NCBI GenBank assembly: GCA_951406725.2
Contig: OX597815.1
Span: forward strand, 158,782,001-158,846,000
Source of the DNA: Octopus vulgaris
Taxonomy: Eukaryota
Direction of reading: 5' to 3'
Length of the DNA: 64,000 nt
The position numbers were made by a program, and so were the translations under genes. The notes under the pieces were generated by a model. It searched no databases, was not told the DNA's origin, and saw only the letters and a list, made by a program, of their open reading frames with translations. The first letter of the stretch is position 1. Each line of letters starts with the position of its first letter. Positions 2,806-59,512 of the stretch are shown piece by piece.

Positions 2806-3428
2806 GTAATTGTTAGAACGTAGGATAAAATGCCTTTGTGAAATTTCACCGGCGTTTTACGTTTCCAGTTCAAATCCTGCCGCGGTCGATTTTGCTTTTC
2901 AACCTTCCAGAATTAATTAAACAAAGTACTAAGCAAGAACTGGGGTCGATTATATCAACTGAATCCCTCCCTCAGATTTCGAACCTTGTGTCTATGTTAG
3001 AAATAGTTATTGCGTTGAATTAGAAGAATCGTTAGAGTATTGACTTAAATATCTTGTGGTATGTATTCCAGTTCTTTACGAATCGAGTTCAAATCCCACT
3101 GATATCAACTTTATCTTTTATCCTTCCAGATTTGATGAAGTACCAGTCACGACTAACTCCGCCTCTTACAACTTTCTGGCCTTTTATCTAAATCAGGAAC
3201 CGTCACAATTATAGCGATGAGAGTGGCAGAATCATGAGAGCGTCGGTATTTATTACGACTCTCTACCATCTGCGTTCAAATCCCTCCGAGGTTAACTTGC
3301 TTTCATTCTTTGGGGGTCGAAAAATTCAAGTAGCAGTCAAAATCTGGGTTCCATTTAGTCGATTGTCTGTTGATCTGTCCCTAAAAATCTAAGCATCTAT
3401 ATCGTCTCGCCAATTCTATTCGCCACTA

Positions 3429-3460
<32 letters not shown>

Positions 3461-5726: not shown

Positions 5727-5843
<117 letters not shown>

Positions 5844-6683: not shown

Positions 6684-7930
6684 TACGAGGTCTGTCTGAA
6701 AAGGATTAGGTATGCAGTGTGAGCTATGAGCGAAAAAGTGATAAGCGGATTGTGTTATCATTTAACATGATATCTTGGGAATATATAACTGTAATATTAG
6801 CTTTCTGCAACCAATGCATATTTTTCTACATGTTCTTGTTGGTAATTTTTTGGTTATCTTACTCCTATTAAAAAATTGGGTTATCTCCCCCCAACTAAAA
6901 AAATTGTTTAACCCTCAATAAAAACAAAAAAGAATGATAAAATTATTAAACATGAAAAGCGAAAAGATTAAACATCTTAGTGAATTTGATAATATTTTTA
7001 TAATACACCATGCACAATTGAAAAAATTAATAAACATGAAAGCTGAAAAAATTAAACATCTCATTGAATCTAATTACATTTTTATATCAAATCATACCAT
7101 ATCTATTGAGGAGGCCAAAAGTCAACAATGTGCTGAAGTATTGAATCAAAAGGATGTTACCCTTTTAACTCAATCTCTCGTCGCCACATAAACTCAATGT
7201 TTTAGGGGGGAGATAACCCAATTTTTTAATGGCAATTTTTTAATGGGGGTGAGATAATCAAAAAGTACCGTTTTTGTTTACATACCTTTTACAAGTCGTT
7301 CAGCTATTAATACTGTGGAACGAACAATGAACACCGAGCAACTAATTGGTTCTGTTGGGGAAAACTCCGTCACAAGCACTTGATGTGCTTCAACAAGTGT
7401 TTGGAGATAACACCATGTAGCGCACACGTGTTTTTGAGTGACACAAAAGATTCAAAGAAGTGGAAAATGATTCGCGGAGCGGGAGGCCTTCAGCAAGCAG
7501 GACTGAGGTCAACGTCGAGCAGTCAATCAGCATATCTACAAAGAAATCCTGCGGTGTTTGCTTCGCTGTGCGTAAGAAGAGACGAGAGTTGTGACAGAAC
7601 AAATCGTGGCTACGTCACCACGACAATGCACCTACTCACAACCGAACATCCAGCAGTTTCTGGCCGAGAAGAATATCGCCGTACTGGACCTATCTCCCTA
7701 TTCACCCAATCTTGTTCCGTGTGACTTTCTTCTTTTCTCCAAGCTCAAGGGGATCATCAAGGGAACCTGTTTTGAAGGCGTAGAGGCCATCATAAAGGCC
7801 GTAGCGACGGAGCTGAGGGGCATCCCAGATGAATCCTTTCAGCAGTGCATAGAAGTGTGGGAGAGGAAAATGGAAAAGTGCATTAGACTCGAGAGAGATA
7901 AAATTTGAAGGGAAAACCATGTAGTTTGTT
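6684..7930 (+). mobile_element. Decayed, internally deleted mariner DNA transposon
   Basis: Starts TACGAGGTCTG (mariner-type end). N-terminal remnant LQQVFGDNTM*RTRVFE*HKRFKE (~7390-7460). C-terminal remnant SPYSPNLVPCDFLLFSKLK...W..KMEKCI (ORF 7591-7908) matches the YSPDLAPCDF motif. Stops and frameshifts are present. Confidence 0.85.
6841..7269. mobile_element. MITE nested in the mariner (GGTA...TACC termini, 9-bp TSD; Merlin- or Mutator-like)
   Basis: Imperfect inverted repeats (ATTAAAAAATTGGGTTATCTCCCCCC / GGGGGGAGATAACCCAATTTTTTAAT). Flanks GTTCTTGTT (6832-6840) and GTTTTTGTT (7270-7278). Confidence 0.7.
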
Positions 7931-8376
7931 GAAATTGAAATATATGTATGTTTGTCTATGTCTGTGTGTCTCTGTTTGTCGCCCCCACCATTGCTTGACA
8001 AGCGGTGTTGGTGTTTACGTCCCCGTAACTTAGCAGTTTGGCAAAAGAAAACCGATTGAATAAGTACTAGGTTTTAAAAATAAGTCCTGGGGTTGATTGG
8101 TTCGGTCAAACCCATTCGAGGCGGTGTTCTAGCAAAGCCGCAGTCAAATGACTGAAACGAGTAAAAGGTATTTTCTTATCTTGGTACAGGGCCAGAAATT
8201 TTGAGGGGTGCGGAAGTCGATTACATCGACCCCTGTGCACAACTAGAGCTTATTTTATCGACCCCCAAAAGATGAAAGGTGTAGTCAATCACAGCGTAAT
8301 TTTGAACTGTGAATGTAAAGACAGACAAAATGCTTAGCAGCAATTTGTCCAGCGTATTAACGATATTGCTGGCTCG

Positions 8377-8434
<58 letters not shown>

Positions 8435-9221
8435 TCATGTGAAAAAAAGAATCCGTGGCTCTTTGCGGTGCCTCCGATGTAGGTGGGTAGGTGGGAGGGA
8501 GGTATCCTCCAATCGAATGCGGGCAACAGTAGACTCCACTAAAGGCACCCAAGGTTGATACGTTGTCGTGGTAAAATGGGTGATGAATTAAGTAAACCGC
8601 CAAAGTAAGCCATGCCAAGATTTGAACTCAGATCATAAGGAGCCGGAAAAAATATTGCAATATATTTGACCCGATGTCCTAACAGTTCCGCTAATTCGCC
8701 GCCCTGGGTTATTTATTTATTTATTTTTGATCGATCCCGAAAGGCAAAAATTGACCTCACAGGAATTGGATCTCAGAATACTGCGAAGCACTTCTACTGC
8801 TTTAACAATTTTGCCAGTTTGCTGCCTAGATTTATGACCTGGATTTGCAGCCAAAACTTGTGGCCTTATACCTACAATAGAAATTACAATATACTTTTCA
8901 GCTGGTGGTGGCGAGTTGGCGGAATCGTTAGCGAATTAGACACGATACTTAGCGGCATTTCTCCTAGCTCTTTATAATCTGGGCTCAAATTCCACCGACG
9001 TCATTCCTTCGGGGGCCGATAAAATAATGTATAGGTTCAGTACTGGAGTCGGAGTAATGAAGTTGTGCCCTCTTCTAAAAACTGCTGATCTTGTACCAAA
9101 ATTTGAAACCATTACACATTTTCTTTTTGAGTTAGGTGAAAATCTGCGAAGTACAAACAGTATTGTACTGTATATTTATAATTTATAATTTGTATATATT
9201 TATTTTATCATAAATGCAAAA

Positions 9222-9294
9222 TACAGTGGAATCGACATAAGCTTAAATAATAAACGGCGATAGGTGAAGCGCGATATGACGAGGGATTACTGTA
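9222..9294. mobile_element. Possible tiny Tc1/pogo-type MITE remnant
   Basis: TACAGT...ACTGTA termini with weak internal inverted similarity. Confidence 0.3.
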
Positions 9295-9698
9295 TTTGTA
9301 ACATGGGTGAACAATTGGTTTACTCACCTTTTACTCTCCCTGCTTCTTCTACCAAAACTTTAGCGACCCCTGTTCTTTAAAACATATTGGATAATTGTAA
9401 GCATTCTCCAGCTTACCCACTCGTCCTACTGATCTCCTCTGCTCTCATATTTTTAATTGTATACGACGTCTAATAACTCCACACTAAAAAGCCGGTACTT
9501 TCCTATTTCGACACACAATTTTTTATTTACAAAAGTGTTAATAAATAACAATTACACTTATGAAACGAGGGTAATAGTTGATTGGCGATCTTTCGATATA
9601 GTTATCGGTTTTTAGAAAAGTACTAGTAAAAAGTACAAGAAAAGAGTGTGGAATTGCAGGGCAAAATATTAAAAAATGTAATGTTAACAGAGAATACC

Positions 9699-10108
9699 TA
9701 TTTCTTTACTGCCAACTTAGAGGAGATAAACAAGGACAGACAAAGGGATTAAGTCGATTATATCAAACCCAGTGCGTAACTGGTACTTAATTTATCGACC
9801 CCGAAAGAATGAAAGGCAAAGTCGATCTCGGCGGAATTTGAACTCAGAACGTAGTGGCAGACGAAATACCTATTTCTATTTCTTTATTACCCACAAGGGG
9901 CTAAACATAGAGGGGACAAACAAGGACAGGCATAGGTATTAAGTCGATTACATCGACCCCAGTGTGTAACTGGTACTTAATTTATCGACCCCGAAAGGAT
10001 GAAAGCAAAGTCGACCTCGGCGGAATTTGAACTCAGAACGTAGCGGCAGACGAAATACCGCTAAGCATTTCACCCGGCGTGCTAACGTTTCTGCCAGCTC
10101 GCCGCCTT
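9699..10108 (-). mobile_element. SINE family B tandem dimer with 15-bp TSD
   Basis: Full monomer plus a 5'-truncated monomer; flanked by TTAACAGAGAATACC at 9684-9698 and 10109-10123. Confidence 0.85.
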
Positions 10109-32015: not shown

Positions 32016-32295
32016 GCATACATCCATATATATATATACGTATATATATATATGCATACATCCATATATATATATATACGTATATATATGTATATATATA
32101 CGTATGTATGTATATATATATATATATACATATATACATGCATACATCCATATATATACGTATGTATATATATGTATATACATTCCTTCTTCCCTTCTTT
32201 CCTGAGCGTCCAATAATACTTTATTTGTTCCACATCCTTGCGTTGTTGTCTTTTTGTTTTCTTGTTTGGATTAACTTTATATATATATATATATA

Positions 32296-35260
32296 AAATT
32301 TGTTTGCTTGTTATCAGTCGTAAGACACTGTTGTTTTCACCGTTAATGCTTCTGTATTTCATGTTTCTGTATTCCATTATTGTTTTTTTTTTTTTTTTTT
32401 TTTTTTTTTATATCTGTCCCTTTTGCTGTCCTGGTGTTCGTATGCATTCGATCCTTCTTCCAGGAAATCTACGCTTCCAGCTTAGTTTTTCTAATGCTCG
32501 TTGCTTGGTTTTTCTTGGAGGGCTGGCCGTGATCTAGTAATCTCAAGATTAATCAGCCGAAATTACTACGATGATCCGGTTCTTGACTGAAGACTGAGGG
32601 TTTCGAATGTCCTGTCCGTGTTTATTGTGTCGTCTTCTAAGAGTTATACGTTCTTGTCCATGTTGTATTTTTCTACATACCTTAACATATATTCCAGGCG
32701 CCCCGTACCCCCCTTAACATTTATGTGAGCACATATTCTTAATAATTGGTACGACTCTCTGTTTGTCTCTCTCTCTCTCTCATTTTTACTTGATCTGTCC
32801 CCCTCTCTCTCTTTTCTCTCTACTCATCCTCTTTTTCTCTTCTCTTTCCTCTGATTCTTTGGTCTAGTCTTCCACTACCCTCCTATTTCTTTGTCTCGCT
32901 CTGCACTCACAGGTCATTCTTCGACACCCATCCCTTCTCTCTGATTCCTTCTTTCTCTCTCTTCTCTCTCTTTGTTGCGTTTGTCCCTCCTCTCTCTCTC
33001 TCTCTCTCTCTCTCTTCCTTTGCTTCTCTTTCTTTTCTTTTCCCTCTTCTCTGTCACGTGACTGTTGGCCGAAATCTGCCTTTCAGTTCCTGACCCTCGT
33101 CTTGTTAACATCGCTGTTTTCGTCCGCCACTATAAAGGCTTTTTCCATTGCGCCAGAGAAAAAATTTGTTTGCTTGTTATCAGTCGTAAGACACTGTTGT
33201 TTTCACCGTTAATGCTTCTGTATTTCATGTTTCTGTATTCCATTATTGTTTTTTGTTTTTTTTTTTTATATCTGTCCCTTTTGCTGTCCTGGTGTTCGTA
33301 TGCATTCGATCCTTCTTCCAGGAAATCTACGCTTCCAGCTTAGTTTTTCTAATGCTCGTTGCTTGGTTTTTCTTGGAGGGCTGGCCGTGATCTAGTAATC
33401 TCAAGATTAATCAGCCGAAATTACTACGATGATCCGGTTCTTGACTGAAGACTGAGGGTTTCGAATGTCCTGTCCGTGTTTATTGTGTCGTCTTCTAAGA
33501 GTTATACGTTCTTGTCCATGTTGTATTTTTCTACATACCTTAACATATATTCCAGGCGCCCCGTACCCCCCTTAACATTTATGTGAGCACATATTCTTAA
33601 TAATTGGTACGACTCTCTGTTTGTCTCTCTCTCTCTCTCATTTTTACTTGATCTGTCCCCCTCTCTCTCTTTTCTCTCTACTCATCCTCTTTTTCTCTTC
33701 TCTTTCCTCTGATTCTTTGGTCTAGTCTTCCACTACCCTCCTATTTCTTTGTCTCGCTCTGCACTCACAGGTCATTCTTCGACACCCATCCCTTCTCTCT
33801 GATTCCTTCTTTCTCTCTCTTCTCTCTCTTTGTTGCGTTTGTCCCTCCTCTCTCTCTCTCCTCTCTCTCTCTCTTCCTTTGCTTCTCTTTCTTTTCTTTT
33901 CCCTCTTCTCTGTCACGTGACTGTTGGCCGAAATCTGCCTTTCAGTTCCTGACCCTCGTCTTGTTAACATCGCTGTTTTCGTCCGCCACTATAAAGGCTT
34001 TTTCCATTGCGCCAGAGAAAAAATTTGTTTGCTTGTTATCAGTCGTAAGACACTGTTGTTTTCACCGTTAATGCTTCTGTATTTCATGTTTCTGTATTCC
34101 ATTATTGTTTTTTGTTTTTTTTTTTTTTATATCTGTCCCTTTTGCTGTCCTGGTGTTCGTATGCATTCGATCCTTCTTCCAGGAAATCTACGCTTCCAGC
34201 TTAGTTTTTCTAATGCTCGTTGCTTGGTTTTTCTTGGAGGGCTGGCCGTGATCTAGTAATCTCAAGATTAATCAGCCGAAATTACTACGATGATCCGGTT
34301 CTTGACTGAAGACTGAGGGTTTCGAATGTCCTGTCCGTGTTTATTGTGTCGTCTTCTAAGAGTTATACGTTCTTGTCCATGTTGTATTTTTCTACATACC
34401 TTAACATATATTCCAGGCGCCCCGTACCCCCCTTAACATTTATGTGAGCACATATTCTTAATAATTGGTACGACTCTCTGTTTGTCTCTCTCTCTCTCTC
34501 ATTTTTACTTGATCTGTCCCCCTCTCTCTCTTTTCTCTCTACTCATCCTCTTTTTCTCTTCTCTTTCCTCTGATTCTTTGGTCTAGTCTTCCACTACCCT
34601 CCTATTTCTTTGTCTCGCTCTGCACTCACAGGTCATTCTTCGACACCCATCCCTTCTCTCTGATTCCTTCTTTCTCTCTCTTCTCTCTCTTTGTTGCGTT
34701 TGTCCCTCCTCTCTCTCTCTCCTCTCTCTCTCTCTTCCTTTGCTTCTCTTTCTTTTCTTTTCCCTCTTCTCTGTCACGTGACTGTTGGCCGAAATCTGCC
34801 TTTCAGTTCCTGACCCTCGTCTTGTTAACATCGCTGTTTTCGTCCGCCACTATAAAGGCTTTTTCCATTGCGCCAGAGAAAAAATTTGTTTGCTTGTTAT
34901 CAGTCGTAAGACACTGTTGTTTTCACCGTTAATGCTTCTGTATTTCATGTTTCTGTATTCCATTATTGTTTTTTTTTTTTTTTTTTTTATATCTGTCCCT
35001 TTTGCTGTCCTGGTGTTCGTATGCATTCGATCCTTCTTCCAGGAAATCTACGCTTCCAGCTTAGTTTTTCTAATGCTCGTTGCTTGGTTTTTCTTGGAGG
35101 GCTGGCCGTGATCTAGTAATCTCAAGATTAATCAGCCGAAATTACTACGATGATCCGGTTCTTGACTGAAGACTGAGGGTTTCGAATGTCCTGTCCGTGT
35201 TTATTGTGTCGTCTTCTAAGAGTTATACGTTCTTGTCCATGTTGTATTTTTCTACATACC

Positions 35261-35265
<5 letters not shown>
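32296..35265. repeat. ~860-bp tandem repeat, ~3.4 near-identical copies, pyrimidine-rich (possibly PLE terminal-repeat derived)
   Basis: Units start AAATTTGTTTGCTTG at ~32296, 33162, 34021 and 34883 and differ mainly in poly-T/CT runs. One segment has a dispersed inverted relative at 15155-15262. Confidence 0.9.
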
Positions 35266-35312
<47 letters not shown>

Positions 35313-45099: not shown

Positions 45100-48000
45100 G
45101 AGCTTTATTTCGACGAAACAATATTTTATCGAAAAATTTCAGTGAAAGAAGTTCCCTGTTCAATACTCGCTGGCAGTGTTTAAATTAAGTTTTAAAAAAT
45201 GATGAAAATTTCGTCACCTTTGCCGGAGCGGTTCACAGAGAGTGTGAGAAACTCAAATTGAACATGTGTTTAATTTTTGTTCAAGGGTTTACTTCAAACA
45301 AAGATGCAGATATAAGATCCCGGATATTAACAAAATTAGAACAGGACCAACATTTTACTTTACAGGCAGTAGCAGAAGAAAGTCAGAGGATTATAAATCT
45401 ACGACATGACACAAATAAAATTGAAGAGAAAGATTGCTCTCATGTTCAACCGTGTCAACCGGTAACGGATAAGAAAAAATATCAAGACCAAATCCATGTT
45501 ACGAGTGCGGTGGTCTACATTTTAAAAATAACTGTTCCTTTAAAAATATGAAATGCTCAAATGTCGTAAAAAAATGGCCATAAAAAGTTGCATTGTGGGA
45601 TAGAACCTAAAAGAACGGTTCAACAGAAAAAATCACGTAAATGGGTTATCGGTGACAAGAATATGAACGAGTCTCAAAGGAAATTTGTGGATGTAAAAAT
45701 GAGTAACACAAATGTAAAGTTACAATTGGATACAGGCAGTGATATCTCAATAATAAACACAGATACATGGAGAAAAAAAATCGTGAGACCTAGATTGAAT
45801 GAAGCTCCGAAAATTACTCGTTGTGTTTAAGGAAAAACATTATATCTTAACGGTGAAATGATAAGTAACATTACATTTTGTTAAAAAAAAGCCTTAAAAG
45901 CTAAAGTTTTTGTGTTAAATAATACCGCAAATTTATTCGGTACTGACAAGATGGGATTATTTAAGTTATGAAACCTCCCCATAAATCTTTGTCAATGGTT
46001 TTTTCCTCCAATCGTCATTCGAATTGAAAATAAATTTTTTGATATTTTTCCTGGAGTTCTGTCTGATAAATTAAGTCTGTGTACCTAAATGGTGCGGTTT
46101 CAAATAAAAGAAAACGCCACACCAGTATTTAACCAAAAAACGAACTGCATCGTTCGCAGCATTAGAACAGATAAACTTAGAGTTACAGAGACTAGAAAAA
46201 ATTGGAATATAGTCAACGAGCATCATCAACTATGTTCGTTAAGGAAAAGAATACTGAAATCAGAATGTGTGCTAATTTTTCCACGGGTTTAAACGAATTC
46301 TTAAAACATGCCACCATCCGCTACCTACTCTAGAAGATATTTTTGTGAATTAAACGGGGACAAGATCTCTCGGATGCTTATTTACAAATTAGAGCAAACG
46401 ATGAATGCTCTAAATGCCTAATAATTAACACACATAAAGGACTGCATAAATACAGTAGGTTACCATTTGACTTAAAAGTTGCACTGGCGATTTTTCAATA
46501 GATTATGGATGCAATGGTAGCGGACTGTAAATTCGCAATTCTATATCTCGATGATATACTCATTAAAAGCGAAGCCAGGGAGCAACTCGCAGAGCACGTA
46601 AAATATGAGTTCGAAAAAAAATCAAGGATTATGGCTTAGTTTGAGTTAATAAAAGTGATTTTTTTCTTACCGAAAATAAGATATTTAGGACAAATAATTG
46701 ACAGGAATGGACGTCGACGGCAGACGCAATTAAAGATGTGCCCCCTCCGACAAATATAACGACCTGACAAGCATTTTAGGACTGGCAAATTATTACCAAA
46801 ATTATATTCCAAATATGCATAAAGTGAAGGTTCCACTGAGTAATCTACTGAAAAAAGATATATAATGTTATTGGCCGGAAAATTATCAAAAGGCCTTTGA
46901 CGAAATAAAAGAAATATTAACATCTGATTTGTCGTTAGCACACTTCGATCCTGCAGCGGAGACAGTTGTAGATTCAGACGCTTCTGAGTACGGTATAGGA
47001 GCAGTAATGCTACATAAGCATAAAGACGAAGACCGTGGTTCATGCCTCACGTTCTCTGATATCAGCAGAGAAAGATTATAGTCAAATCGAAAAAGAGGCT
47101 CTAGTGATTATTTTTGTCTTGAGAATTTTCACAGATTTTTACACGGTAGAAGTTTTCGTCTATAGATTGATCATCATCTATTATTATCAATATTTGGGTC
47201 AAAGAAAGAAATTCCTACCCATACTGCTAATAGGTTGCAACGCTGGGGTACGATATTATTAAAATATGATTTCAAGATGAAGCATATACCATCCAAGAGA
47301 TTAGGTCATGATGACTGTCTATCAAGACGATTTCGAAAAATGCAGAACCATTTGAAGATACCGTGATTGCTGCTTTGCGAGCAGAAAATGAAATTTAAAA
47401 TATTTTGTGTAACGTCATTCGTGAACTGCCAGTTACTTTACAAGGCACAAAATTAAAATCGGAAAGCTATAAATTTATTATAAAACTGAAAGAAATACTA
47501 GAGGCTAAAAGCGATAAAAATTTGCGCAAAACAACAGCGATCCATTTCTCACTGTCTGACAATGTGTTGAAGCATGCACAAAGAGTCGTAATGACAAAAG
47601 CGATTATTAAAGGAATTTCATATTAGTTACCCAGGTATTTCGAGAATGAAATCGTTAATGAGAAGTTATTTATACTCGCCAACAATGGACCGTGACATTG
47701 AAGAATCGGTGAAAACATGCAGAAGAAAACATGCCTTAGCTGCAAAAGCACCTACCACTAAATGACAACCGTAGCCAAAAACAAGTTCTATGGGCCAGAT
47801 TACGCAGGTCCACTTAAGGGTTCATATTACCTTGTTGTGGTGGATAGTTTTTCAAAGTGACCGGAAATGCATGAATGTAAAAAGCCAGCATCTGCGGTTA
47901 CACTAAATGTTTTACATGAATTGTTTACCAGGTATGGTTTTTACGGATCCCATTGTGTCTGATAACAGAGTACTCAATTTACGTCAGACGAGTTCATAAA

Positions 48001-48685
48001 ATTTCGTAAAATGTTCGTCATCGAATATGTCACTACCCCGCCCAATCATCCAAAGTCAAATGCACAAGCGGAGCGTTTTGTTGACACTTTCAAGAGGGCG
48101 TTGAAAAGGGCGAACAATAAAGTGATGGACAATTTTGCCCTTCAGTAATTTCTAAGAGTGTACCGAGTAACACCCAATCCGAATACACCGTCGGGAATGT
48201 CATCTGCAGAATTGATGTTTGCTAGAAATGTCAGATCCATCTTGGATAAACTGATATCTAGTGAAAAAAAAAAACGCGAACAACAAAAAGACTTCAAAAT
48301 TCTTCAAGTTAGGTAACAAGGTTGTTTTTTTTAAACCTAAAGATACGGTAAAGAAAGCTGGGAGGGCGGTGTAATTATTAAACAAATTGGAAGAATGATA
48401 TACTTGGTAAAAGGAAAAGTGTCGAATATAATAAAAGACATTAACAAACTTTAAAAAAGATTGACGGAAAAGACAGTCACGAGAAATTAATTCTCCTTGA
48501 AAGTATTGTACGACACGTTTGAAGTACCAACACTTAATTCGAAACTACACTTCTAGCAGCAGAAAACGGAAAAGAATGGAAACACTGGAATTGAACCTTA
48601 AGTGTAAGAGATATTAAAACTCTAGGCGGAGTTCAATTCTCAAAAAGGGAGAAGATAGGGGAGACTGATTCTAAAAAGGGGGAAA
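45100..48685 (+). mobile_element. Decayed Ty3/Gypsy LTR retrotransposon internal region (gag-PR-RT-RH-IN)
   Basis: Remnants in order: DIRSRILTKLEQD (gag), CYECGGLH knuckle, KLQLDTGSDISII (protease, 45720), YLDDILI (RT, 46545), DASEYGIGAV and YSQIEKEAL (RNase H), DYAGP...VVVDSFSK, VSDN, HPKSNAQAERFV (integrase). Many stops and frameshifts. Confidence 0.9.
48673..48685 (+). other. Polypurine tract of the Gypsy element
   Basis: AAAAAGGGGGAAA immediately before TGTTG, downstream of integrase. Confidence 0.7.
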
Positions 48686-48951
48686 TGTTGTAGAAGGATT
48701 CCGACCACCCACCAAGTGGCTAAATGTGAACTGACTCATTGTTATAAAACAAAGAACTGTGAGCGATTGGAAGTTTGAGTCGGTGAGCAGGATTGTTGTG
48801 TTATTTTTGCTCTCTGTGAAGTTCGGTAAAGGGAGGAGTGAATGGTTGTTGTTGTGAAGTTTTGAACATGGTTGATGCGGTTTCGCGTCTCACTGGTTCT
48901 GCGCGTTGCACTTTTTCGGTTCGGGAGGCCGTTTTTCGGTCTGAGGCGACT

Positions 48952-50280
48952 GTGAGCCGCCTCCATCAGGCGGAGGAGATGGAAGGGAGAATTTGCTCTG
49001 AGGTTTCGACGGAAGTATCGACATCTGAGGAGGGGTTGGTGGTGAGAGGGATGGAGGGCACCTGCGCAGGTGTAGCGAGGAGGACAGCGGAAGGAGGGAT
49101 GGACCTGGCTGGGTTGGCGGGCCTCCAGGGGTTTGTGAGGGAGGACGAGAGCGGTGAGGTTGAGCTGCTGCATCCGGTGGGGTGCGGAGACTGGTTCCAT
49201 CGTGGAACCATTAAGTGTGGAGTATTTATGAATGGAGGTGGAAGGATGGAAGTGATTGACATGGGAGCAATTGAGGAGGCTCTCAGGCGGACGGGAGAGG
49301 AAGTTGTGTGCATGACGGGGGGATTGCAGTGCGGAGCCGTGGCGGTGCAGTTTAGAAGTGAAGGGGCGGCCAGGAATGTGGCAGCCAGGGTGGTGAGTAC
49401 AGGGGGGATTTGCTTGTTACCCTCGTGTCTGAGTAGGCGGACAACCGGAATTGGGGTGGAGGGAGTGCCTCCACACCTAGAGGGCGAATTAATAACGGCT
49501 GCGGTTATAAAAGGAAATGAAGATAAAGTGGACATCCTCCACGCCATTATGAAGTATGAAGGCGTGAGAGGTGCCACACTAGTTATGAACATTCAAGCGG
49601 AGGCGGATGTTATAGAGAGGATTACGGACAGCATAAAAACTGGAAATATTATTATGAGAGTGTGGGTGGAGGGTAGGGCGCCCAGGTGCTACAAGTGTGG
49701 CCAAAGGGGTCACATAAGAGCCTACTGCACTCCCCCACCAAAGGAAAAAGAAAAGGAAAGCGTTGAGGAAGCCTCAAGAGAGGAAGAAAATAAACAGAAA
49801 CAAACAGAGAGGGAAACGACAGAAGAAGAGGAGATGCAACAAGAGTGGAAAGAAGGGGGAACAAAGAGAAAAAGAAAGAAAAAGAAAAACTGTGCGAAGC
49901 CCCAACCCACCCCGACACCACCCATACCCTTGGAGTCCCATCCTTCCCCTGCAAACAGTGATTCCACCCACTCCCCGCCTACAAGAAAAATAAAAACAGA
50001 CACACAGAGCAAAGAAAGTCCCAAGACCCATTTTTTATGTGTTATACATGGGAAAGACATACAAAACGTTAAAAAACTGGTGTTAACCAAGTGGTACGAA
50101 CACGAAGATTGGAGCTACACGGCTGTGGATAGTGATGATACGGGTATATTGGCGACAAGGTTTGAGGAAGAGGGTGTGTGTTGGAAGTCAGTGGAAATGA
50201 AAGATGAATGGATAGAGAGGGCTAAAAGAAAAACGAATGTTATGATAGATAAAACAGGAATACTAATTGGAAATGGGTGA
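48952..50280 (+). CDS. ORF1/Gag-like CCHC zinc-knuckle protein, copy 1 (A>G hypermutated 5' part; first ATG changed to GTG)
   Basis: Open frame 48838-50280; CYKCGQRGHIRAYC knuckle; many Y>C, K>R/G, I>V, T>A changes relative to copies 2-5. Confidence 0.7.
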   Translation: MSRLHQAEEMEGRICSEVSTEVSTSEEGLVVRGMEGTCAGVARRTAEGGMDLAGLAGLQGFVREDESGEVELLHPVGCGDWFHRGTIKCGVFMNGGGRMEVIDMGAIEEALRRTGEEVVCMTGGLQCGAVAVQFRSEGAARNVAARVVSTGGICLLPSCLSRRTTGIGVEGVPPHLEGELITAAVIKGNEDKVDILHAIMKYEGVRGATLVMNIQAEADVIERITDSIKTGNIIMRVWVEGRAPRCYKCGQRGHIRAYCTPPPKEKEKESVEEASREEENKQKQTERETTEEEEMQQEWKEGGTKRKRKKKKNCAKPQPTPTPPIPLESHPSPANSDSTHSPPTRKIKTDTQSKESPKTHFLCVIHGKDIQNVKKLVLTKWYEHEDWSYTAVDSDDTGILATRFEEEGVCWKSVEMKDEWIERAKRKTNVMIDKTGILIGNG

Positions 50281-50631
50281 AGAAGGACAGATAAGTGATG
50301 CTGGCGGATGGGGCCGTCGGTATCACTCTCATATATCATTTTCATATTCCATTTTGCTCATATATATGTAATTGTGATGTTCCATGTCCCCAATGTTTGT
50401 AACGTCCCCTCTATGTAGCCCCTAGTGGGTAATAAAGAAATCAGTTTGAGTCGGTAAGCAGGATTGTTGTGTTTTTTGCTCTCTGTGAAATTCGGTAAAA
50501 AGAAAAAAGAACAAAAAGTGAATGGTCGTTGTTGTAAAATTTTGAACATAGTTGATGCGGTTTCGCGTCTCACTGGTTCTGCGCGTTACACTTTTTCGGT
50601 TCGGGAGGCCGTTTTTCGGCCGGAGGCGACT

Positions 50632-51960
50632 ATGAGCCGCCTCCATCAAGCGGAGGAGATGGAAGGGAGAATTTACTCTGAAATTTCGACGGAAGTATCG
50701 ACATCTGAGGAGGAGTTGGTGGTGAAAAAGATGGAAGGCACCTACGCAGGTGTAACGAAGAAGTCAACGGAAAGAGAGATAGACCTGGCTAAGTTGGCGG
50801 GCCTCCAGGAGTTTGTGAAGGAGGACGAGAACGGTGAAGTTGAGCTGCTGCATCCAGTAGGGCGCGGAGACTGGTTCCATCGTAGAACCATTAAATATAA
50901 AGTATTTATGAATGGAGGTAGAAAGATGGAAGTAATTAACATGGAAGTAATTGAAGAGGCTCTCAAGCAGACAGGAGAGGAAATTGTGTACATGACAAAA
51001 GGATTACAATACGGAACCATAACGGTGCAATTTAAAAGTGAAAAAGCAGCCAGGAATGTAGCAGCCAAGGTGGTGAGTACAGAAAAGATTTACTTGTTAC
51101 CCTCGTATCTGAATAGGCGGACAACCAGAATTAGGGTGGAGGGAATACCTCCACACCTAGAGGGCGAATTAATAACGGCTGCGGTTATAAAAGGAAATGA
51201 AGATAAAGTGGACATCCTCCACGCCATTATGAAGTATGAAGGCGTGAGAGGTGCCACACTAGTTATGAACATTCAAACGGAGGCGGATGTTATAGAGAGG
51301 ATTACGGACAGCATAAAAACTGGAAATATTATTATGAGAGTGTGGGTGGAGGGTAGGGCGCCCAGGTGCTACAAGTGTGGCCAAAGGGGTCACATAAGAG
51401 CCTACTGCCCTCCCCCACCAAAGGAAAAAGAAAAGGAAAGCGTTGAGGAAGCCTCAGGAGAGGAAGAAAATAAACAGAAACAAACAGAGAAGGAAACGAC
51501 AGAAGAAGAGGAGATGCAACAAGAGTGGAAAGAAGGGGGAACAAAGAGAAAAAGAAGGAAAAAGAAAAACTGTGCGAAGCCCCAACCCACCCCGACACCA
51601 CCCATACCCTTGGAGTCCCATCCTTCCCCTGCAAACAGTGATTCCACCCACTCCCCGCCTACAAGAAAAATAAAAACAGACACACAGAGCAAAGAAAGTC
51701 CCAAGACCCATTTTTTATGTGTTATACATGGGAAAGACATACAAAACGTTAAAAAACTGGTGTTAACCAAGTGGTACGAACACGAAGATTGGAGCTACAC
51801 GGCTGTGGATAGTGATGATACGGGTATATTGGCGACAAGGTTTGAGGAAGAGGGTGTGTGTTGGAAGTCAGTGGAAATGAAAGATGAATGGATAGAGAGG
51901 GCTAAAAGAAAAACGAATGTTATGATAGATAAAACAGGAATACTAATTGGAAATGGGTGA
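50632..51960 (+). CDS. ORF1/Gag-like CCHC zinc-knuckle protein, copy 2 (442 aa from first ATG)
   Basis: TYAGV motif, RRM-like RIRVEGIPPHL segment, V.V.G.AP-CX2CX4HX4C, acidic tract, KRKRRKKK NLS-like stretch and Pro-rich linker; typical of Tx1/L1-type ORF1p. Frame is open from 50464. Confidence 0.85.
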   Translation: MSRLHQAEEMEGRIYSEISTEVSTSEEELVVKKMEGTYAGVTKKSTEREIDLAKLAGLQEFVKEDENGEVELLHPVGRGDWFHRRTIKYKVFMNGGRKMEVINMEVIEEALKQTGEEIVYMTKGLQYGTITVQFKSEKAARNVAAKVVSTEKIYLLPSYLNRRTTRIRVEGIPPHLEGELITAAVIKGNEDKVDILHAIMKYEGVRGATLVMNIQTEADVIERITDSIKTGNIIMRVWVEGRAPRCYKCGQRGHIRAYCPPPPKEKEKESVEEASGEEENKQKQTEKETTEEEEMQQEWKEGGTKRKRRKKKNCAKPQPTPTPPIPLESHPSPANSDSTHSPPTRKIKTDTQSKESPKTHFLCVIHGKDIQNVKKLVLTKWYEHEDWSYTAVDSDDTGILATRFEEEGVCWKSVEMKDEWIERAKRKTNVMIDKTGILIGNG

Positions 51961-52311
51961 AGAAGGACAGATAAGTGATGCTGGCGGATGGGGCCGTCGG
52001 TATCACTCTCATATATCATTTTCATATTCCATTTTGCTCATATATATGTAATTGTGATGTTCCATGTCCCCAATGTTTGTAACGTCCCCTCTATGTAGCC
52101 CCTAGTGGGTAATAAAGAAATCAGTTTGAGTCGGTAAGCAGGATTGTTGTGTTTTTTGCTCTCTGTGAAATTCGGTAAAAAGAAAAAAGAACAAAAAGTG
52201 AATGGTCGTTGTTGTAAAATTTTGAACATAGTTGATGCGGTTTCGCGTCTCACTGGTTCTGCGCGTTACACTTTTTCGGTTCGGGAGGCCGTTTTTCGGC
52301 CGGAGGCGACT

Positions 52312-53640
52312 ATGAGCCGCCTCCATCAAGCGGAGGAGATGGAAGGGAGAATTTACTCTGAAATTTCGACGGAAGTATCGACATCTGAGGAGGAGTTGGT
52401 GGTGAAAAAGATGGAAGGCACCTACGCAGGTGTAACGAAGAAGTCAACGGAAAGAGAGATAGACCTGGCTAAGTTGGCGGGCCTCCAGGAGTTTGTGAAG
52501 GAGGACGAGAACGGTGAAGTTGAGCTGCTGCATCCAGTAGGGCGCGGAGACTGGTTCCATCGTAGAACCATTAAATATAAAGTATTTATGAATGGAGGTA
52601 GAAAGATGGAAGTAATTAACATGGAAGTAATTGAAGAGGCTCTCAAGCAGACAGGAGAGGAAATTGTGTACATGACAAAAGGATTACAATACGGAACCAT
52701 AACGGTGCAATTTAAAAGTGAAAAAGCAGCCAGGAATGTAGCAGCCAAGGTGGTGAGTACAGAAAAGATTTACTTGTTACCCTCGTATCTGAATAGGCGG
52801 ACAACCAGAATTAGGGTGGAGGGAATACCTCCACACCTAGAGGGCGAATTAATAACGGCTGCGGTTATAAAAGGAAATGAAGATAAAGTGGACATCCTCC
52901 ACGCCATTATGAAGTATGAAGGCGTGAGAGGTGCCACACTAGTTATGAACATTCAAACGGAGGCGGATGTTATAGAGAGGATTACGGACAGCATAAAAAC
53001 TGGAAATATTATTATGAGAGTGTGGGTGGAGGGTAGGGCGCCCAGGTGCTACAAGTGTGGCCAAAGGGGTCACATAAGAGCCTACTGCCCTCCCCCACCA
53101 AAGGAAAAAGAAAAGGAAAGCGTTGAGGAAGCCTCAGGAGAGGAAGAAAATAAACAGAAACAAACAGAGAAGGAAACGACAGAAGAAGAGGAGATGCAAC
53201 AAGAGTGGAAAGAAGGGGGAACAAAGAGAAAAAGAAGGAAAAAGAAAAACTGTGCGAAGCCCCAACCCACCCCGACACCACCCATACCCTTGGAGTCCCA
53301 TCCTTCCCCTGCAAACAGTGATTCCACCCACTCCCCGCCTACAAGAAAAATAAAAACAGACACACAGAGCAAAGAAAGTCCCAAGACCCATTTTTTATGT
53401 GTTATACATGGGAAAGACATACAAAACGTTAAAAAACTGGTGTTAACCAAGTGGTACGAACACGAAGATTGGAGCTACACGGCTGTGGATAGTGATGATA
53501 CGGGTATATTGGCGACAAGGTTTGAGGAAGAGGGTGTGTGTTGGAAGTCAGTGGAAATGAAAGATGAATGGATAGAGAGGGCTAAAAGAAAAACGAATGT
53601 TATGATAGATAAAACAGGAATACTAATTGGAAATGGGTGA
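52312..53640 (+). CDS. ORF1/Gag-like CCHC zinc-knuckle protein, copy 3
   Basis: Translation identical to copy 2. Confidence 0.85.
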   Translation: MSRLHQAEEMEGRIYSEISTEVSTSEEELVVKKMEGTYAGVTKKSTEREIDLAKLAGLQEFVKEDENGEVELLHPVGRGDWFHRRTIKYKVFMNGGRKMEVINMEVIEEALKQTGEEIVYMTKGLQYGTITVQFKSEKAARNVAAKVVSTEKIYLLPSYLNRRTTRIRVEGIPPHLEGELITAAVIKGNEDKVDILHAIMKYEGVRGATLVMNIQTEADVIERITDSIKTGNIIMRVWVEGRAPRCYKCGQRGHIRAYCPPPPKEKEKESVEEASGEEENKQKQTEKETTEEEEMQQEWKEGGTKRKRRKKKNCAKPQPTPTPPIPLESHPSPANSDSTHSPPTRKIKTDTQSKESPKTHFLCVIHGKDIQNVKKLVLTKWYEHEDWSYTAVDSDDTGILATRFEEEGVCWKSVEMKDEWIERAKRKTNVMIDKTGILIGNG

Positions 53641-53993
53641 AGAAGGACAGATAAGTGATGCTGGCGGATGGGGCCGTCGGTATCACTCTCATATATCATT
53701 TTCATATTCCATTTTGCTCATATATATGTAATTGTGATGTTCCATGTCCCCAATGTTTGTAACGTCCCCTCTATGTAGCCCCTAGTGGGTAATAAAGAAA
53801 TCAGTTTGAGTCGGTAAGCAGGATTGTTGTGTTTTTTGCTCTCTGTAAGAAATTCGGTAAAAAGAAAAAAGAACAAAAAGTGAATGGTCGTTGTTGTAAA
53901 ATTTTGAACATAGTTGATGCGGTTTCGCGTCTCACTGGTTCTGCGCGTTACACTTTTTCGGTTCGGGAGGCCGTTTTTCGGCCGGAGGCGACT

Positions 53994-55322
53994 ATGAGCC
54001 GCCTCCATCAAGCGGAGGAGATGGAAGGGAGAATTTACTCTGAAATTTCGACGGAAGTATCGACATCTGAGGAGGAGTTGGTGGTGAAAAAGATGGAAGG
54101 CACCTACGCAGGTGTAACGAAGAAGTCAACGGAAAGAGAGATAGACCTGGCTAAGTTGGCGGGCCTCCAGGAGTTTGTGAAGGAGGACGAGAACGGTGAA
54201 GTTGAGCTGCTGCATCCAGTAGGGCGCGGAGACTGGTTCCATCGTAGAACCATTAAATATAAAGTATTTATGAATGGAGGTAGAAAGATGGAAGTAATTA
54301 ACATGGAAGTAATTGAAGAGGCTCTCAAGCAGACAGGAGAGGAAATTGTGTACATGACAAAAGGATTACAATACGGAACCATAACGGTGCAATTTAAAAG
54401 TGAAAAAGCAGCCAGGAATGTAGCAGCCAAGGTGGTGAGTACAGAAAAGATTTACTTGTTACCCTCGTATCTGAATAGGCGGACAACCAGAATTAGGGTG
54501 GAGGGAATACCTCCACACCTAGAGGGCGAATTAATAACGGCTGCGGTTATAAAAGGAAATGAAGATAAAGTGGACATCCTCCACGCCATTATGAAGTATG
54601 AAGGCGTGAGAGGTGCCACACTAGTTATGAACATTCAAACGGAGGCGGATGTTATAGAGAGGATTACGGACAGCATAAAAACTGGAAATATTATTATGAG
54701 AGTGTGGGTGGAGGGTAGGGCGCCCAGGTGCTACAAGTGTGGCCAAAGGGGTCACATAAGAGCCTACTGCCCTCCCCCACCAAAGGAAAAAGAAAAGGAA
54801 AGCGTTGAGGAAGCCTCAGGAGAGGAAGAAAATAAACAGAAACAAACAGAGAAGGAAACGACAGAAGAAGAGGAGATGCAACAAGAGTGGAAAGAAGGGG
54901 GAACAAAGAGAAAAAGAAGGAAAAAGAAAAACTGTGCGAAGCCCCAACCCACCCCGACACCACCCATACCCTTGGAGTCCCATCCTTCCCCTGCAAACAG
55001 TGATTCCACCCACTCCCCGCCTACAAGAAAAATAAAAACAGACACACAGAGCAAAGAAAGTCCCAAGACCCATTTTTTATGTGTTATACATGGGAAAGAC
55101 ATACAAAACGTTAAAAAACTGGTGTTAACCAAGTGGTACGAACACGAAGATTGGAGCTACACGGCTGTGGATAGTGATGATACGGGTATATTGGCGACAA
55201 GGTTTGAGGAAGAGGGTGTGTGTTGGAAGTCAGTGGAAATGAAAGAGGAATGGATAGAGAGGGCTAAAAGAAAAACGAATGTTGTGATAGATAAAACAGG
55301 AATATTAATTGGAAATGGGTGA
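53994..55322 (+). CDS. ORF1/Gag-like CCHC zinc-knuckle protein, copy 4
   Basis: As copy 2 with C-terminal D>E and M>V. Confidence 0.85.
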   Translation: MSRLHQAEEMEGRIYSEISTEVSTSEEELVVKKMEGTYAGVTKKSTEREIDLAKLAGLQEFVKEDENGEVELLHPVGRGDWFHRRTIKYKVFMNGGRKMEVINMEVIEEALKQTGEEIVYMTKGLQYGTITVQFKSEKAARNVAAKVVSTEKIYLLPSYLNRRTTRIRVEGIPPHLEGELITAAVIKGNEDKVDILHAIMKYEGVRGATLVMNIQTEADVIERITDSIKTGNIIMRVWVEGRAPRCYKCGQRGHIRAYCPPPPKEKEKESVEEASGEEENKQKQTEKETTEEEEMQQEWKEGGTKRKRRKKKNCAKPQPTPTPPIPLESHPSPANSDSTHSPPTRKIKTDTQSKESPKTHFLCVIHGKDIQNVKKLVLTKWYEHEDWSYTAVDSDDTGILATRFEEEGVCWKSVEMKEEWIERAKRKTNVVIDKTGILIGNG

Positions 55323-55673
55323 AGAAGGACAGATAAGTGATGCTGGCGGATGGGGCCGTCGGTATCACTCTCATATATCATTTTCATATTCCATTTTGCT
55401 CATATATATGTAATTGTGATGTTCCATGTCCCCAATGTTTGTAACGTCCCCTCTATGTAGCCCCTAGTGGGTAATAAAGAAATCAGTTTGAGTTGGTAAG
55501 CAGGATTGTTGTGTTTTTTGTTCTCTGTGAAATTCGGTAAAAAGAAAAAAGAACAAAAAGTGAATGGTTGTTGTTGTAAAATTTTGAACATAGTTGATGC
55601 GGTTTCGCGTCTCACTGGTTCTGCGCGTTACACTTTTTCGGTTCGGGAGGCCGTTTTTCGGCCGGAGGCGACT

Positions 55674-57002
55674 ATGAGCCGCCTCCATCAAGCGGAGGAG
55701 ATGGAAGGGAGAATTTACTCTGAAATTTCGACGGAAGTATCGACATCTGAGGAGGAGTTGGTGGTGAAAAAGATGGAAGGCACCTACGCAGGTGTAACGA
55801 AGAAGTCAACGGAAAGAGAGATAGACCTGGCTAAGTTGGCGGGCCTCCAGGAGTTTGTGAAGGAGGACGAGAACGGTGAAGTTGAGCTGCTGCATCCAGT
55901 AGGGCGCGGAGACTGGTTCCATCGTAGAACCATTAAATATAAAGTATTTATGAATGGAGGTAGAAAGATGGAAGTAATTAACATGGAAGCAATTGAAGAG
56001 GCTCTCAAGCAGACAGGAGAGGAAATTGTGTACATGACAAAAGGATTACAATACGGAACCATAACGGTGCAATTCAAAAGTGAAAAAGCAGCCAGGAATG
56101 TAGCAGCCAAGGTGGTGAGTACAGAAAAGATTTACTTGTTACCCTCGTATCTGAATAGGCGGACAACCAGAATTAGGGTGGAGGGAATACCTCCACACCT
56201 AGAGGGCGAATTAATAACGGCTGCGGTTATAAAAGGAAATGAAGATAAAGTGGACATCCTCCACGCCATTATGAAGTATGAAGGCGTGAGAGGTGCCACA
56301 CTAGTTATGAACATTCAAACGGAGGCGGATGTTATAGAGAGGATTACGGACAGCATAAAAACTGGAAATATTATTATGAGAGTGTGGGTGGAGGGTAGGG
56401 CGCCCAGGTGCTACAAGTGTGGCCAAAGGGGTCACATAAGAGCCTACTGCCCTCCCCCACCAAAGGAAAAAGAAAAGGAAAGCGTTGAGGAAGCCTCAGG
56501 AGAGGAAGAAAATAAACAGAAACAAACAGAGAAGGAAACGACAGAAGAAGAGGAGATGCAACAAGAGTGGAAAGAAGGGGGAACAAAGAGAAAAAGAAGG
56601 AAAAAGAAAAACTGTGCGAAGCCCCAACCCACCCCGACACCACCCATACCCTTGGAGTCCCATCCTTCCCCTGCAAACAGTGATTCCACCCACTCCCCGC
56701 CTACAAGAAAAATAAAAACAGACACACAGAGCAAAGAAAGTCCCAAGACCCATTTTTTATGTGTTATACATGGGAAAGACATACAAAACGTTAAAAAACT
56801 GGTGTTAACCAAGTGGTACGAACACGAAGATTGGAGCTACACGGCTGTGGATAGTGATGATATGGGTATATTGGCGACAAGGTTTGAGGAAGAGGGTGTG
56901 TGTTGGAAGTCAGTGGAAATGAAAGAGGAATGGATAGAGAGGGCTAAAAGAAAAACGAATGTTGTGATAGATAAAACAGGAATACTAATTGGAAATGGGT
57001 GA
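55674..57002 (+). CDS. ORF1/Gag-like CCHC zinc-knuckle protein, copy 5
   Basis: As copy 2 with V>A, T>M, D>E and M>V. Confidence 0.85.
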   Translation: MSRLHQAEEMEGRIYSEISTEVSTSEEELVVKKMEGTYAGVTKKSTEREIDLAKLAGLQEFVKEDENGEVELLHPVGRGDWFHRRTIKYKVFMNGGRKMEVINMEAIEEALKQTGEEIVYMTKGLQYGTITVQFKSEKAARNVAAKVVSTEKIYLLPSYLNRRTTRIRVEGIPPHLEGELITAAVIKGNEDKVDILHAIMKYEGVRGATLVMNIQTEADVIERITDSIKTGNIIMRVWVEGRAPRCYKCGQRGHIRAYCPPPPKEKEKESVEEASGEEENKQKQTEKETTEEEEMQQEWKEGGTKRKRRKKKNCAKPQPTPTPPIPLESHPSPANSDSTHSPPTRKIKTDTQSKESPKTHFLCVIHGKDIQNVKKLVLTKWYEHEDWSYTAVDSDDMGILATRFEEEGVCWKSVEMKEEWIERAKRKTNVVIDKTGILIGNG

Positions 57003-59512
57003 AGAAGGACAGATAAGTGATGCTGGCGGATGGGGCCGTCGGTATCACTCTCATATATCATTTTCATATTCCATTTTGCTCATATATATGTAATTGTGAT
57101 GTTCCATGTCCCCAATGTTTGTAACGTCCCCTCTATGTAGCCCCTAGTGGGTAATAAAGAAATCAGTTTGAGTTGGTAAGCAGTTTACTGTGAGCCGTGG
57201 TAGAGAGGGGGTGAGTCTCATGTAATAGTAATAGTAGTGCGTGGTGTAAACGCTTTCTTTTTCCCTGCTCCATTATATTATATGTCCAATACAAAGATAA
57301 AAAATATCGAGCAAATACTCCTGAGAACCACGATGAAAACTAATTCCTATTTAAGTTACGATGCTTCCATTTACTTTCAGTCTCTAAGTTGTGTCTTAAT
57401 TCAGATATAACATTCGAAATTCATAATAGGTATTCTTACAGTGTCATAAGGCCACCAAATTAAGAAGTGTGAGGCTGATTCTATCAAACGCTTCTGGTAT
57501 TTAATTTATTGTTTTTCAGGGAGGAAAGATAACGTTCATAATGGTGGATTTTAAAATGAAAACTTAAACGAACGTAACGAAAATACCTTTCCGAATTTTA
57601 TCAATTTTATCAAATTTTACTTACTGGAACGATTGTAGAGATGCCGTTTTATTCACACTGAACTGCTTTCCGGATATACCTTACATAAAATATCTACTTG
57701 AGAGTAGGATATGGCCTCCAAACTAACCCTCGGTTAAGTCTGGAGACATTACTTTGAAAAAAGCCGATGGGAAAGAAAAAGCATTACCTCTGTGTTTTCA
57801 GTCCTGTCTACAATATTACTGCATCTCTTCGACCCACCATCATTAATGGATGGATGGATGGAAGTATAACTACCATCTCGTCTGCCTATACTTTTTCTTC
57901 ACTGGGCATACTTACGCATTGATTCTCAGATCAATATAAACGCTCGCACATATATATGTTTAGAGATGATTATTGAAATGTTCATTAGTTACTAAAGCAA
58001 AAATAGATACGAAAAATATCGATATTGATCATGATTAAATACACGATCAAGAAAACTGCCATGTACCCCCGTGTTCTATCCTCACAAAAGAAAAAAAAAA
58101 CGTAATAGAGTGGTCTTCGAAATGGATTCTGCTGAAAACAGGATCCATCTACACATGATAACATCCATTGGTTTTCATTTCACAAGTAAACAACAAAGTC
58201 ATTGAAGGGAAGAAACACTGGTCTTAAACGTGTACATGGAAGCTGGTTTGTCATCTTCACAGACACGTCTAGATGGTTTCATTACCATACCTATACAGCT
58301 TATCCTAAACTAAGAGTGATCGTCAACGTTAGCGTAAGCCAAGTGTATTTTGCCAATTATTCTGAAAAATATTCAAGAAAAATATGCTCACACTATCCTC
58401 GTCAATCCCCGAAGGAACCTCTAGTATATCGTCACTTATGCTCTACGCTAACTTTCTATAAAATACAACCAACCATATTATTATCAAGATAGTAGTGGTA
58501 TTTAAATGTTTTACCAGAAACCAGATACCAAGTGCCCATTATTGATCTACAGCGGTTGAATCAATCAAATAAATCGTGATAAACAAACCAAATCTAGTAA
58601 AGAACAAGTAGACTTAATCACCTTCCAGAAATGTCTGGATTTTGTAACCCCATTACAGACTTTCTCATCATCAGCCTTGGTATTCTAAGGATCCCATGAA
58701 ATCAGTGTTACAGCAAATGAACTTTCTGACCAAACCTGTTCTTTTACGGCAACCAATGTGGCAGGTTTATAGATCTCGTTAGATATTTCATTGGGTAAGT
58801 GAGATATGGGGTCCAGAGAGTATCACATCACTAAATTAATGGAGAGGTTAATCATCTTAACGTGTCATTCCAGAAGCAACAACTTCATTTTAGTCCATTT
58901 CTAAGAATAATCATCCTGCACATCCCTTCGTCATCGTTCCTATCCATCTGGTGGAGTTTTAGCATGCAAGAGCAAAATGCTTAGCGGCATTTCGTCCGTC
59001 TTTACGTTCTAAATTCAAATGCCGCCAGGGTCGACTTTGCCTTTCATCTTTTCGAGAATGATCTAAGTACCAGTTGAGTACTGGGATCGATGTAATCGAC
59101 TTAGCCCCTCCCACGAAAGAAACCAATATTGTTTTAAAATATGAACAGTTTTACTAAGTCATCTGCCTGGCGACAAATAATGACCACCATGCACAAGGAC
59201 TTTCAATTATTTCAGAGTATCTTTTGATCGTGCCCGTCTTCAATAGTGAAACGACTTCTTGGCTCAAATAACTAAAGCTTCTGCAATATAAGTTCCAACC
59301 AAAGTACGAGTGAACAATTTTGGTATGTTTAAATGATAGGTTTTCTAGGGGGAAACGATCTTTCAGTCTTAGAGGTTTGCACTCCGTGTAATAGCTGATC
59401 AGTATATCAACTACATAGAGCGCCGCCGCAAATTTTTCACGCCATTTTCTTGAAAACCGTCGCTCTTCTATTAAACTGTACACGCCAACTTCTTCCTCTT
59501 GTTGGAGATTAA

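Follow-up and report, generated by a model that had tools for sequence, protein, structure and literature searches.

Clustered A>G Changes in Copies of an Octopus Non-LTR Retroelement Suggest ADAR Hyper-Editing of RNA before Genomic Insertion

Introduction

Deaminase scars in inherited retroelements are known from vertebrates. The G>A changes left by APOBEC enzymes in long terminal repeat (LTR) retrotransposons are clustered and strand-specific, and the edited element still integrates and is inherited (Knisbacher and Levanon, PMC4866542; see also PMC2873906). As described there, the scars arise by cytidine deamination of the cDNA and are restricted to LTR elements, with 19 invertebrate genomes used as the negative control (PMC4866542). 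Here we describe a comparable pattern in Octopus vulgaris. The window, a stretch of 64,000 nucleotides (assembly GCA_951406725.2, contig OX597815.1, positions 158,782,001 to 158,846,000, forward strand), contains an array of five units of a non-LTR retroelement with a single long open reading frame (ORF), ORF1, and the first unit (copy 1) differs from its neighbors by a dense tract of A>G changes. In contrast to the APOBEC system, the octopus case concerns A>G changes, probably made by adenosine deamination of RNA, in a non-LTR element of an invertebrate.

Reverse transcription of edited RNA is described for avian retroviruses (Rous-associated virus, avian leukosis virus), where up to about half of the As appear as G in DNA (PMC12925331). 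These viruses are exogenous and the reported tracts are short and located in U3 or an inverted repeat, whereas the octopus elements form an endogenous family with tracts of 0.1–1.7 kb in many apparently independent copies and in several samples. Dense A>G clusters with a depletion of upstream G are also described for hyper-edited repeat RNA in animal transcriptomes, with octopus among the two highest rates (PMC5625713). That editing is transient and favors a 3′ A in the octopus bulk set, whereas the changes studied here reside in DNA and favor a 3′ G. The endogenous mouse mammary tumor virus copy Mtv61 is a germline retroelement copy with an A>G excess for which ADAR was considered (PMC12548423); its context was judged as non-ADAR by the authors, in contrast to the octopus context, which fits ADAR strongly. 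According to a 2016 review, it had “not yet been determined” which roles ADAR plays in the evolution of Alu elements and in their suppression by mutation (PMC4982230). A full-text search of mainly open-access literature brought up no description of ADAR scars in the genomic copies of a non-LTR family, although an earlier mention may exist.

Results and Discussion

The five units were aligned with MAFFT and copy 1 was compared to copy 2. The comparison revealed 84 A>G substitutions, in addition to two G>A, three C>T and one each of G>T, T>A, T>C and C>A, as well as two length differences in the 5′ A-run, an insertion of 2 nt and a deletion of 11 nt, so that some A>G calls in this run hinge on gap placement. 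The changes are concentrated in a tract at 48821–49467 (plus strand) with about 39% of the As changed and an ADAR-type neighbor preference. Within alignment columns 79–712 (about 48837–49470) 76 of 197 As were changed to G, compared to 2 of 355 in the other 970 columns (Fisher p=2e-36). The original prediction, a hand alignment, had listed about 76 A>G in 48850–49467, few other substitutions, no G>A and about five differences past the tract; the formal count is 76 with five other substitutions and zero G>A, followed by five differences. The fraction of changed As depends on the 5′ neighbor, with 24/34 (0.71) after T, 40/67 (0.60) after A, 7/30 (0.23) after C and 5/66 (0.08) after G. The impression that only about five changed As follow a G thus corresponds to a significant depletion (5/66 versus 71/131 after non-G, p=2e-11). 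A 3′ G is mildly favored (31 of 63 As, p=0.04). As had been pointed out, many of the changed Gs (25/76) precede C or T, unlike the GG/GA contexts of APOBEC3.

ORF1 of unit 1 (48952–50280, plus strand) is still open and no stop was gained. The predicted loss of the first ATG at 48952, now GTG, and of the TYAGV motif, now TCAGV, was found as described, and 53 of 442 codons encode an altered residue in comparison to unit 2. The changes are distributed 21/29/22 over the codon positions and 19 of 72 are synonymous, with 51 of 179 possible. Since the codon positions are evenly affected and the synonymous share is near that possible, no sign of selection is seen.

The direction of change could be derived from outgroup copies. 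The 84 sites are mostly A in nine of nine unedited comparison copies from other arrays; unit positions 94, 531, 555 and 835 are common family variants and not private to copy 1. Three sister subfamilies (64–67% identical) carry A at 50–59% and G at 24–26% of the changed sites, a base mix similar to that at unchanged As and different from that at unchanged Gs (about 70% G). Because dispersed copies as well as three sister subfamilies carry A, we conclude that A is ancestral at the changed sites, in accordance with the direction originally proposed.

To what extent the G alleles are present in reads was followed in four sequencing runs, which are DNA by our guess at the run types and one of which is possibly the assembly's own source. 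Runs X1 (sample S1, study P1) and X2 (sample S2, study P2) each contain a 174-nt contig exactly matching 49225–49398 with 30 changed sites, and run X4 (sample S3, study P1) contains a 151-nt contig over 49282–49432, also with 30 changed sites. Jointly, the exact contigs listed span 59 of the 84 changed sites. The depth of the tract amounts to 66 (X1) and 16 (X2), compared to 56 and 14 in the unique flank and about 1,000–10,000 at the family level; run X5, at very low depth, gave no cover of the tract. No RNA run occurred among the matches listed for the edited sequence. Since the same 30-site haplotype in two studies is unexpected from stochastic RNA editing, the G alleles are considered genomic, and the expectation that DNA reads would contain them agrees with the DNA-type runs of three samples from two studies. 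From their occurrence in several samples at flank depth we infer that they are inherited.

Copy 1 is not an isolated case. From 34 regions, found by similarity to one subfamily, 169 units were cut; after removal of 24 units without relatives at two other loci and four with fewer than 600 polarised sites, 141 units in 26 regions remained. A unit at C15:12.7 Mb (139 A>G versus 41 G>A, single relative) was excluded from the counts. At least 20 private A>G were found in 11 of the 141 units (141, 117, 80 for copy 1, 63, 61, 55, 39, 32, 23, 23 and 20), with a median of 6 for all units, whereas the per-unit maxima of other private changes are 19 for G>A, 15 for C>T and 7 for T>C. Since the window served as index case and C8:64.98 Mb surfaced only when the edited sequence was used as query, both regions may be set aside, which leaves 9 of 133 units (about 7%). 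Because the regions were chosen by similarity to one subfamily and local duplicates are included, 11/141 is not to be read as a genome-wide rate.

A cluster scan of all 45 assembled sequences, in which 262,906 of 676,045 bases were polarised, revealed 17 clusters, distributed over 15 units from 13 regions and all of them sense-strand A>G (p=6e-5): they read A>G for plus-strand and T>C for minus-strand elements, and clusters of G>A or C>T were absent from the polarised bases. Scanning for further A>G-clustered retrocopies, as had been suggested, thus yielded about a dozen units of this family. Depending on the copy, the tract lies in the 5′ part, in the 3′ half or over the entire unit, so that the placement of the edited stretch in the 5′ ~700 nt holds for copy 1 but not for the family. 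The cleanest example, at C6:90.081–90.083 Mb, is a single unit edited end to end with 141 A>G over 1671 nt. Of the 1853 As in the tracts of the eight strongest units, 565 are changed to G, three to T and none to C. Their pooled rates are 0.57 after T, 0.44 after A, 0.21 after C and 0.07 after G, and a following G gives the highest rate of the 3′ neighbors (0.42, p=8e-11).

Two simpler regularities were rejected: a family-wide background excess of A>G is not significant, and editing is not restricted to first units, as only five of the 11 strongest units occupy the first position of an array and the other six do not. Searches with copy 1 and with the edited copy at C10:73.27 Mb gave no daughters of edited units among their 40 best matches, the next best match reaching 92% and 90%, respectively. 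In the 18-unit array at C5:100.95–100.98 Mb, which has a four-unit higher-order repeat and a 290-bp stretch duplicated on both array sides, a short tract of eight A>G sites was multiplied three times through local duplication.

Concerning the enzyme, A_deamin matches were obtained at four loci, one of which aligns to human ADAR2 (E 2e-102). The corresponding exon shows full identity to an ADAR2-type protein from Octopus vulgaris, and on these alignments the host encodes a predicted ADAR2 orthologue. The exon matches human ADAR2 across the presumed 3′-contact loop. Upstream-G depletion is described as an ADAR motif common to animals (PMC5625713), and the 3′ G preference fits an ADAR with serine at the 3′-contact position, as in ADAR2-like enzymes (PMC5625713).

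Our preferred explanation is that sense RNA of the element paired with antisense RNA, was hyper-edited and was then reverse-transcribed into the germline, to which we assign a probability of roughly 0.85. Sense transcripts would pair with antisense RNA of the same family over hundreds of bases, and an ADAR, probably ADAR2, would deaminate 15–45% of the As within the paired stretch. The edited transcript would still enter target-primed reverse transcription with proteins supplied from another copy; since the unit would be moved in trans, a damaged ORF1 need not block insertion. The reverse transcriptase (RT) would read inosine as G, fixing the edited molecule as a germline insertion, in the presumed order of editing before inserting. 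Copy 1 would then be one edited molecule placed at the front of the array in a host LTR, and copies 2–4 would have multiplied locally later. A>G changes that are confined to the element and its sense strand and avoid a 5′ G are therefore expected from deamination of sense RNA followed by RT copying. For comparison, the left host flank contains 12 A>G, 8 T>C, 20 G>A and 12 C>T in 989 sites.

Possible sources of antisense RNA are inverted family copies at C1:74.68 Mb and C5:38.9 Mb. At C1:74.680–74.683 Mb the 3′ 950 bp of the unit occur inverted and then direct, a near-perfect 1.9-kb palindrome within an array that is a candidate source of double-stranded or antisense RNA. Because the tract ends vary between copies, antisense RNA of varying extent is suggested. 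A TTATAA at 51185–51192 (unit 2 positions 743–750) is TATA-like on both strands and located about 30 nt beyond the end of the copy 1 tract; as a possible antisense start it is a weak lead, and the tracts of other copies end elsewhere. An intramolecular fold was rejected as substrate. The first 758 nt fold with z −3.2, the 5′ end pairing with unit positions 717–740 and a longest helix of 10 bp; since helices of 10 bp at the 5′ end and 14 bp in the whole unit are too short for 39% editing, the fold of the unit is unfit.

Several observations weigh against this explanation. The A>G pattern is known here from genomic DNA alone, and no contig in the compared runs links the edited tract with the flank of the locus. 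No inverted repeat was found near copy 1, with one 15-nt pair in 47000–52200, and no helix longer than 14 bp in the unit's own fold, in which the paired share is no higher among edited (28 of 82) than among unedited As (51 of 132). The original proposal that the 5′ ~700 nt was double-stranded, edited, retrotransposed and inherited is supported by the A>G pattern, its context and its presence in DNA, but lacks a local duplex partner. A 3′ G is present at 40% of the edited sites, with 29% of the As here preceding G, whereas the bulk octopus hyper-editing motif favors a 3′ A with G at 20–25% (PMC5625713). Depletion of 5′ G is borderline (p 0.06–0.08) in three of the 11 strongest units. The 81 other units of subfamily A show distinct A>G versus T>C at 0.108 versus 0.086 (p=0.36), although their distinct A>G variants still avoid a 5′ G (p=0.001). 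Additionally, human L1 RNA was reported as unedited by ADAR1 (PMC5224506).

The same enzyme might have acted on DNA, if the sense DNA strand, as second strand or finished copy, paired with antisense RNA and dA was converted to dI. An identical neighbor context would result, and ADARs edit DNA in DNA:RNA hybrids in vitro, an activity seen at A-C mismatches or with hyperactive mutants (cited in PMC12925331). The G at 48785, in the left target-site copy and hence in expected host DNA, also points in this direction, but the target copy of the C10:73.27 Mb array, which has an edited first unit and a target duplication, is unchanged. The hybrid formed during reverse transcription holds the antisense cDNA and would yield sense T>C, which is absent (at most 7 per unit), and after insertion sense transcription should expose the antisense strand at least equally, whereas 15 of 15 tracts are sense A>G. 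With identical neighboring units and the host flank also unaffected, DNA deamination is improbable. The possibility that copy 1 retains an ancestral G-rich state and the other copies were mutated G>A in an APOBEC-like manner is favored only by the formal symmetry of a pairwise alignment. It is refuted by dozens of dispersed copies and three diverged subfamilies having A; every G-rich copy has its own set of sites, and the changed Gs are not restricted to GG or GA.

Polymerase eta favors A>G after A or T, and the preferred 5′ T and A in the tracts agree with this WA motif. An error-prone polymerase at second-strand synthesis, or mispairing by the element's RT under skewed nucleotide pools, would therefore be conceivable, and synthesis of the sense strand gives the observed strand. 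Polymerase eta also makes many A>T and A>C errors, at a rate of a few per cent, in contrast to the 565 A>G with three A>T and no A>C and to the up to 42% of As changed over 240–1670 nt. Other error types are not raised in the tracts, and the threefold gap between 5′ C and 5′ G as well as the 3′ G preference fit ADAR. Close copies of ORF2, the reading frame of the autonomous partner, are products of the same RT and contain no cluster in about 19.6 kb, where at most about one would be expected. As to editing of the partner itself, this is too little for a conclusion, as is the absence of G from all 20 hits of a degenerate ORF2 motif of 31 nt that caught a minority of copies. We rate polymerase error as very improbable, slightly more so than DNA deamination. 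Practically negligible is an assembly or polishing artefact, such as edited RNA reads entering the consensus. One matching run may be the assembly's source and run types were guessed; nevertheless, exact 30-site contigs occur in X1, X2 and X4, at a depth near that of the flank and far below the family level. RNA hyper-editing before insertion thus remains preferred.

The simplest reading of the edited copies is that they arose independently, with hot spots in common. Three edited copies that sit on different haplotypes show every one of the seven presence patterns, and the closest relative of copy 1 is an unedited unit, ahead of any edited copy, which suggests independence. On the other side, 57 sites are common to copy 1 and the copy at C10:73.27 Mb, compared to 46 expected from the 5′ neighbor alone, so that some shared history of these two is possible. 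Descent of copy 1 from copy 2 was rejected, as its body belongs to a different haplotype with an unedited unit on C10 as nearest relative. The 3′ end of copy 1 has a private base in common with copies 2 and 3, and copies 2–4 share private bases. Because the body of copy 1 is foreign and private bases are shared, the array is attributed to two or more insertions, after which units were duplicated or converted locally.

The array occupies 48772–57183 and is organized as T-U-T-U-T-U-T-U-T-U-T, with five units (U) of about 1.66 kb on the plus strand; a 19-bp sequence (T) precedes every unit and closes the array after unit 5. In relatives of the flanking LTR with an empty site, the left flank, a single T and the right flank are contiguous. 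Since these relatives read through unbroken, T is host sequence and hence a target-site duplication. The left part (48686–48771) of the host LTR, which belongs to an LTR retrotransposon and received the array, shows no A>G excess and contains a TATA-like box of putative function at 48743–48749, 29 nt upstream of the insertion point. The first target-site copy (48772–48790) has G at 48785, where T2–T6 and the empty-site relatives have A; this lone site may be a chance change or an edit. Unit 1, the hyper-mutated copy, extends over 48791–50442 in the five-unit alignment. Outside its edited tract lies a CCHC zinc knuckle (49684–49731; Pfam zf-CCHC, E 0.0012–0.0015, just missing the curated cut-off), and at its 3′ end an AATAAA signal (50431–50436) that is present in every unit. 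Units 2–5 with their preceding T are located at 50443–52122 (ORF1 50632–51960, 442 aa), 52123–53802 (identical to unit 2; ORF1 52312–53640), 53803–55484 (ORF1 53994–55322) and 55485–57164 (ORF1 55674–57002). They are unedited and differ from one another by 0–7 substitutions. The terminal T6 (57165–57183) is followed by the right part of the host LTR (57184–57304), contiguous with the target site as in the empty-site relatives. For the T between units, several insertions at one nick, with 5′ joining guided by homology, would fit. Re-insertion in place from the locus's own transcript, prompted by the G in the left T, is conceivable; this is a single site and the haplotype of copy 1 is foreign. 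A second tandem array at 32295–35271 (period about 860 bp, 3.5 copies, 99% identical) has no 90-aa ORF on the minus strand and is dissimilar to the ORF1-only unit.

Each unit contains a single long sense ORF of 442 aa, counted from the first ATG. No homologue of ORF1 was found at E 0.001 among 4932 candidates; Atlas leads point towards CCHC and ZCCHC3-type RNA-binding clusters (0.90–0.93). The family is dispersed, chiefly as head-to-tail arrays mixing haplotypes and subfamilies. At C10:43.61 Mb units directly precede an element with Exo_endo_phos (E 1.5e-12) and RVT_1 (E 4e-26) domains, and relatives of this partner with APE endonuclease (EN) and RT are EN+RT+zf-RVT proteins of 1060–1510 aa. 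Because ORF1-only units stand next to an APE endonuclease/RT element, the unit behaves as a HAL1-type non-autonomous element; judged by its sequence, it is a non-autonomous ORF1-only (HAL1-like) non-LTR retroelement of L1/Tx1 type, and we infer that the neighboring EN+RT element mobilises it in trans. Similar to HAL1 (half-L1; PMC5753468), it is a non-autonomous L1-type derivative with ORF1 only. HAL1 was described from mammals, whereas the octopus family forms head-to-tail mixed arrays at a preferred target, and a common origin of both is unlikely. The claim that the unit moves through RNA is supported by the target duplications, 19 bp of host LTR flanking the window array and 14 bp at a single copy at C5:97.63 Mb, and by the EN+RT partner adjoining units.

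An upstream flank, measured in some cases at about 500 bp, is common to many arrays, and several also have the downstream flank in common, which marks a preferred target (C8:64.98, C8:9.60, C10:47.67, C10:43.62, C6:90.08, C20:32.44 and C31:1.35 Mb). These arrays mix several ORF1-only subfamilies, and some terminate in an ORF1+ORF2 element; the layout presumably resembles that of HeT-A/TART arrays. Insertion points lie about 29–32 nt behind a TATA-like box in the window (48743–48772), at C10:73.27 Mb and at the shared target, as if the family inserted at putative polymerase II start sites and borrowed the promoter.

Conclusion

Taken over the whole family, we lean towards ADAR being a recurrent heritable mutagen of non-LTR retroelements in octopus, with about 1 in 14 family units hyper-edited as RNA prior to insertion. 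If true, this is an invertebrate, RNA-level counterpart of APOBEC3 scarring. A feedback of ADAR into retroelement evolution has so far been assumed, and a young family with 97–99% identity allows it to be tested copy by copy. Caution is also needed in read mapping across the family, where scarred copies will mimic sites of RNA editing. Every such copy would permanently record, for a single molecule, the specificity of germline ADAR and the extent of the duplex. The finding would imply that ADAR is active in the germline or the early embryo of an animal noted for neural editing, and would provide a route from RNA editing into inherited DNA.
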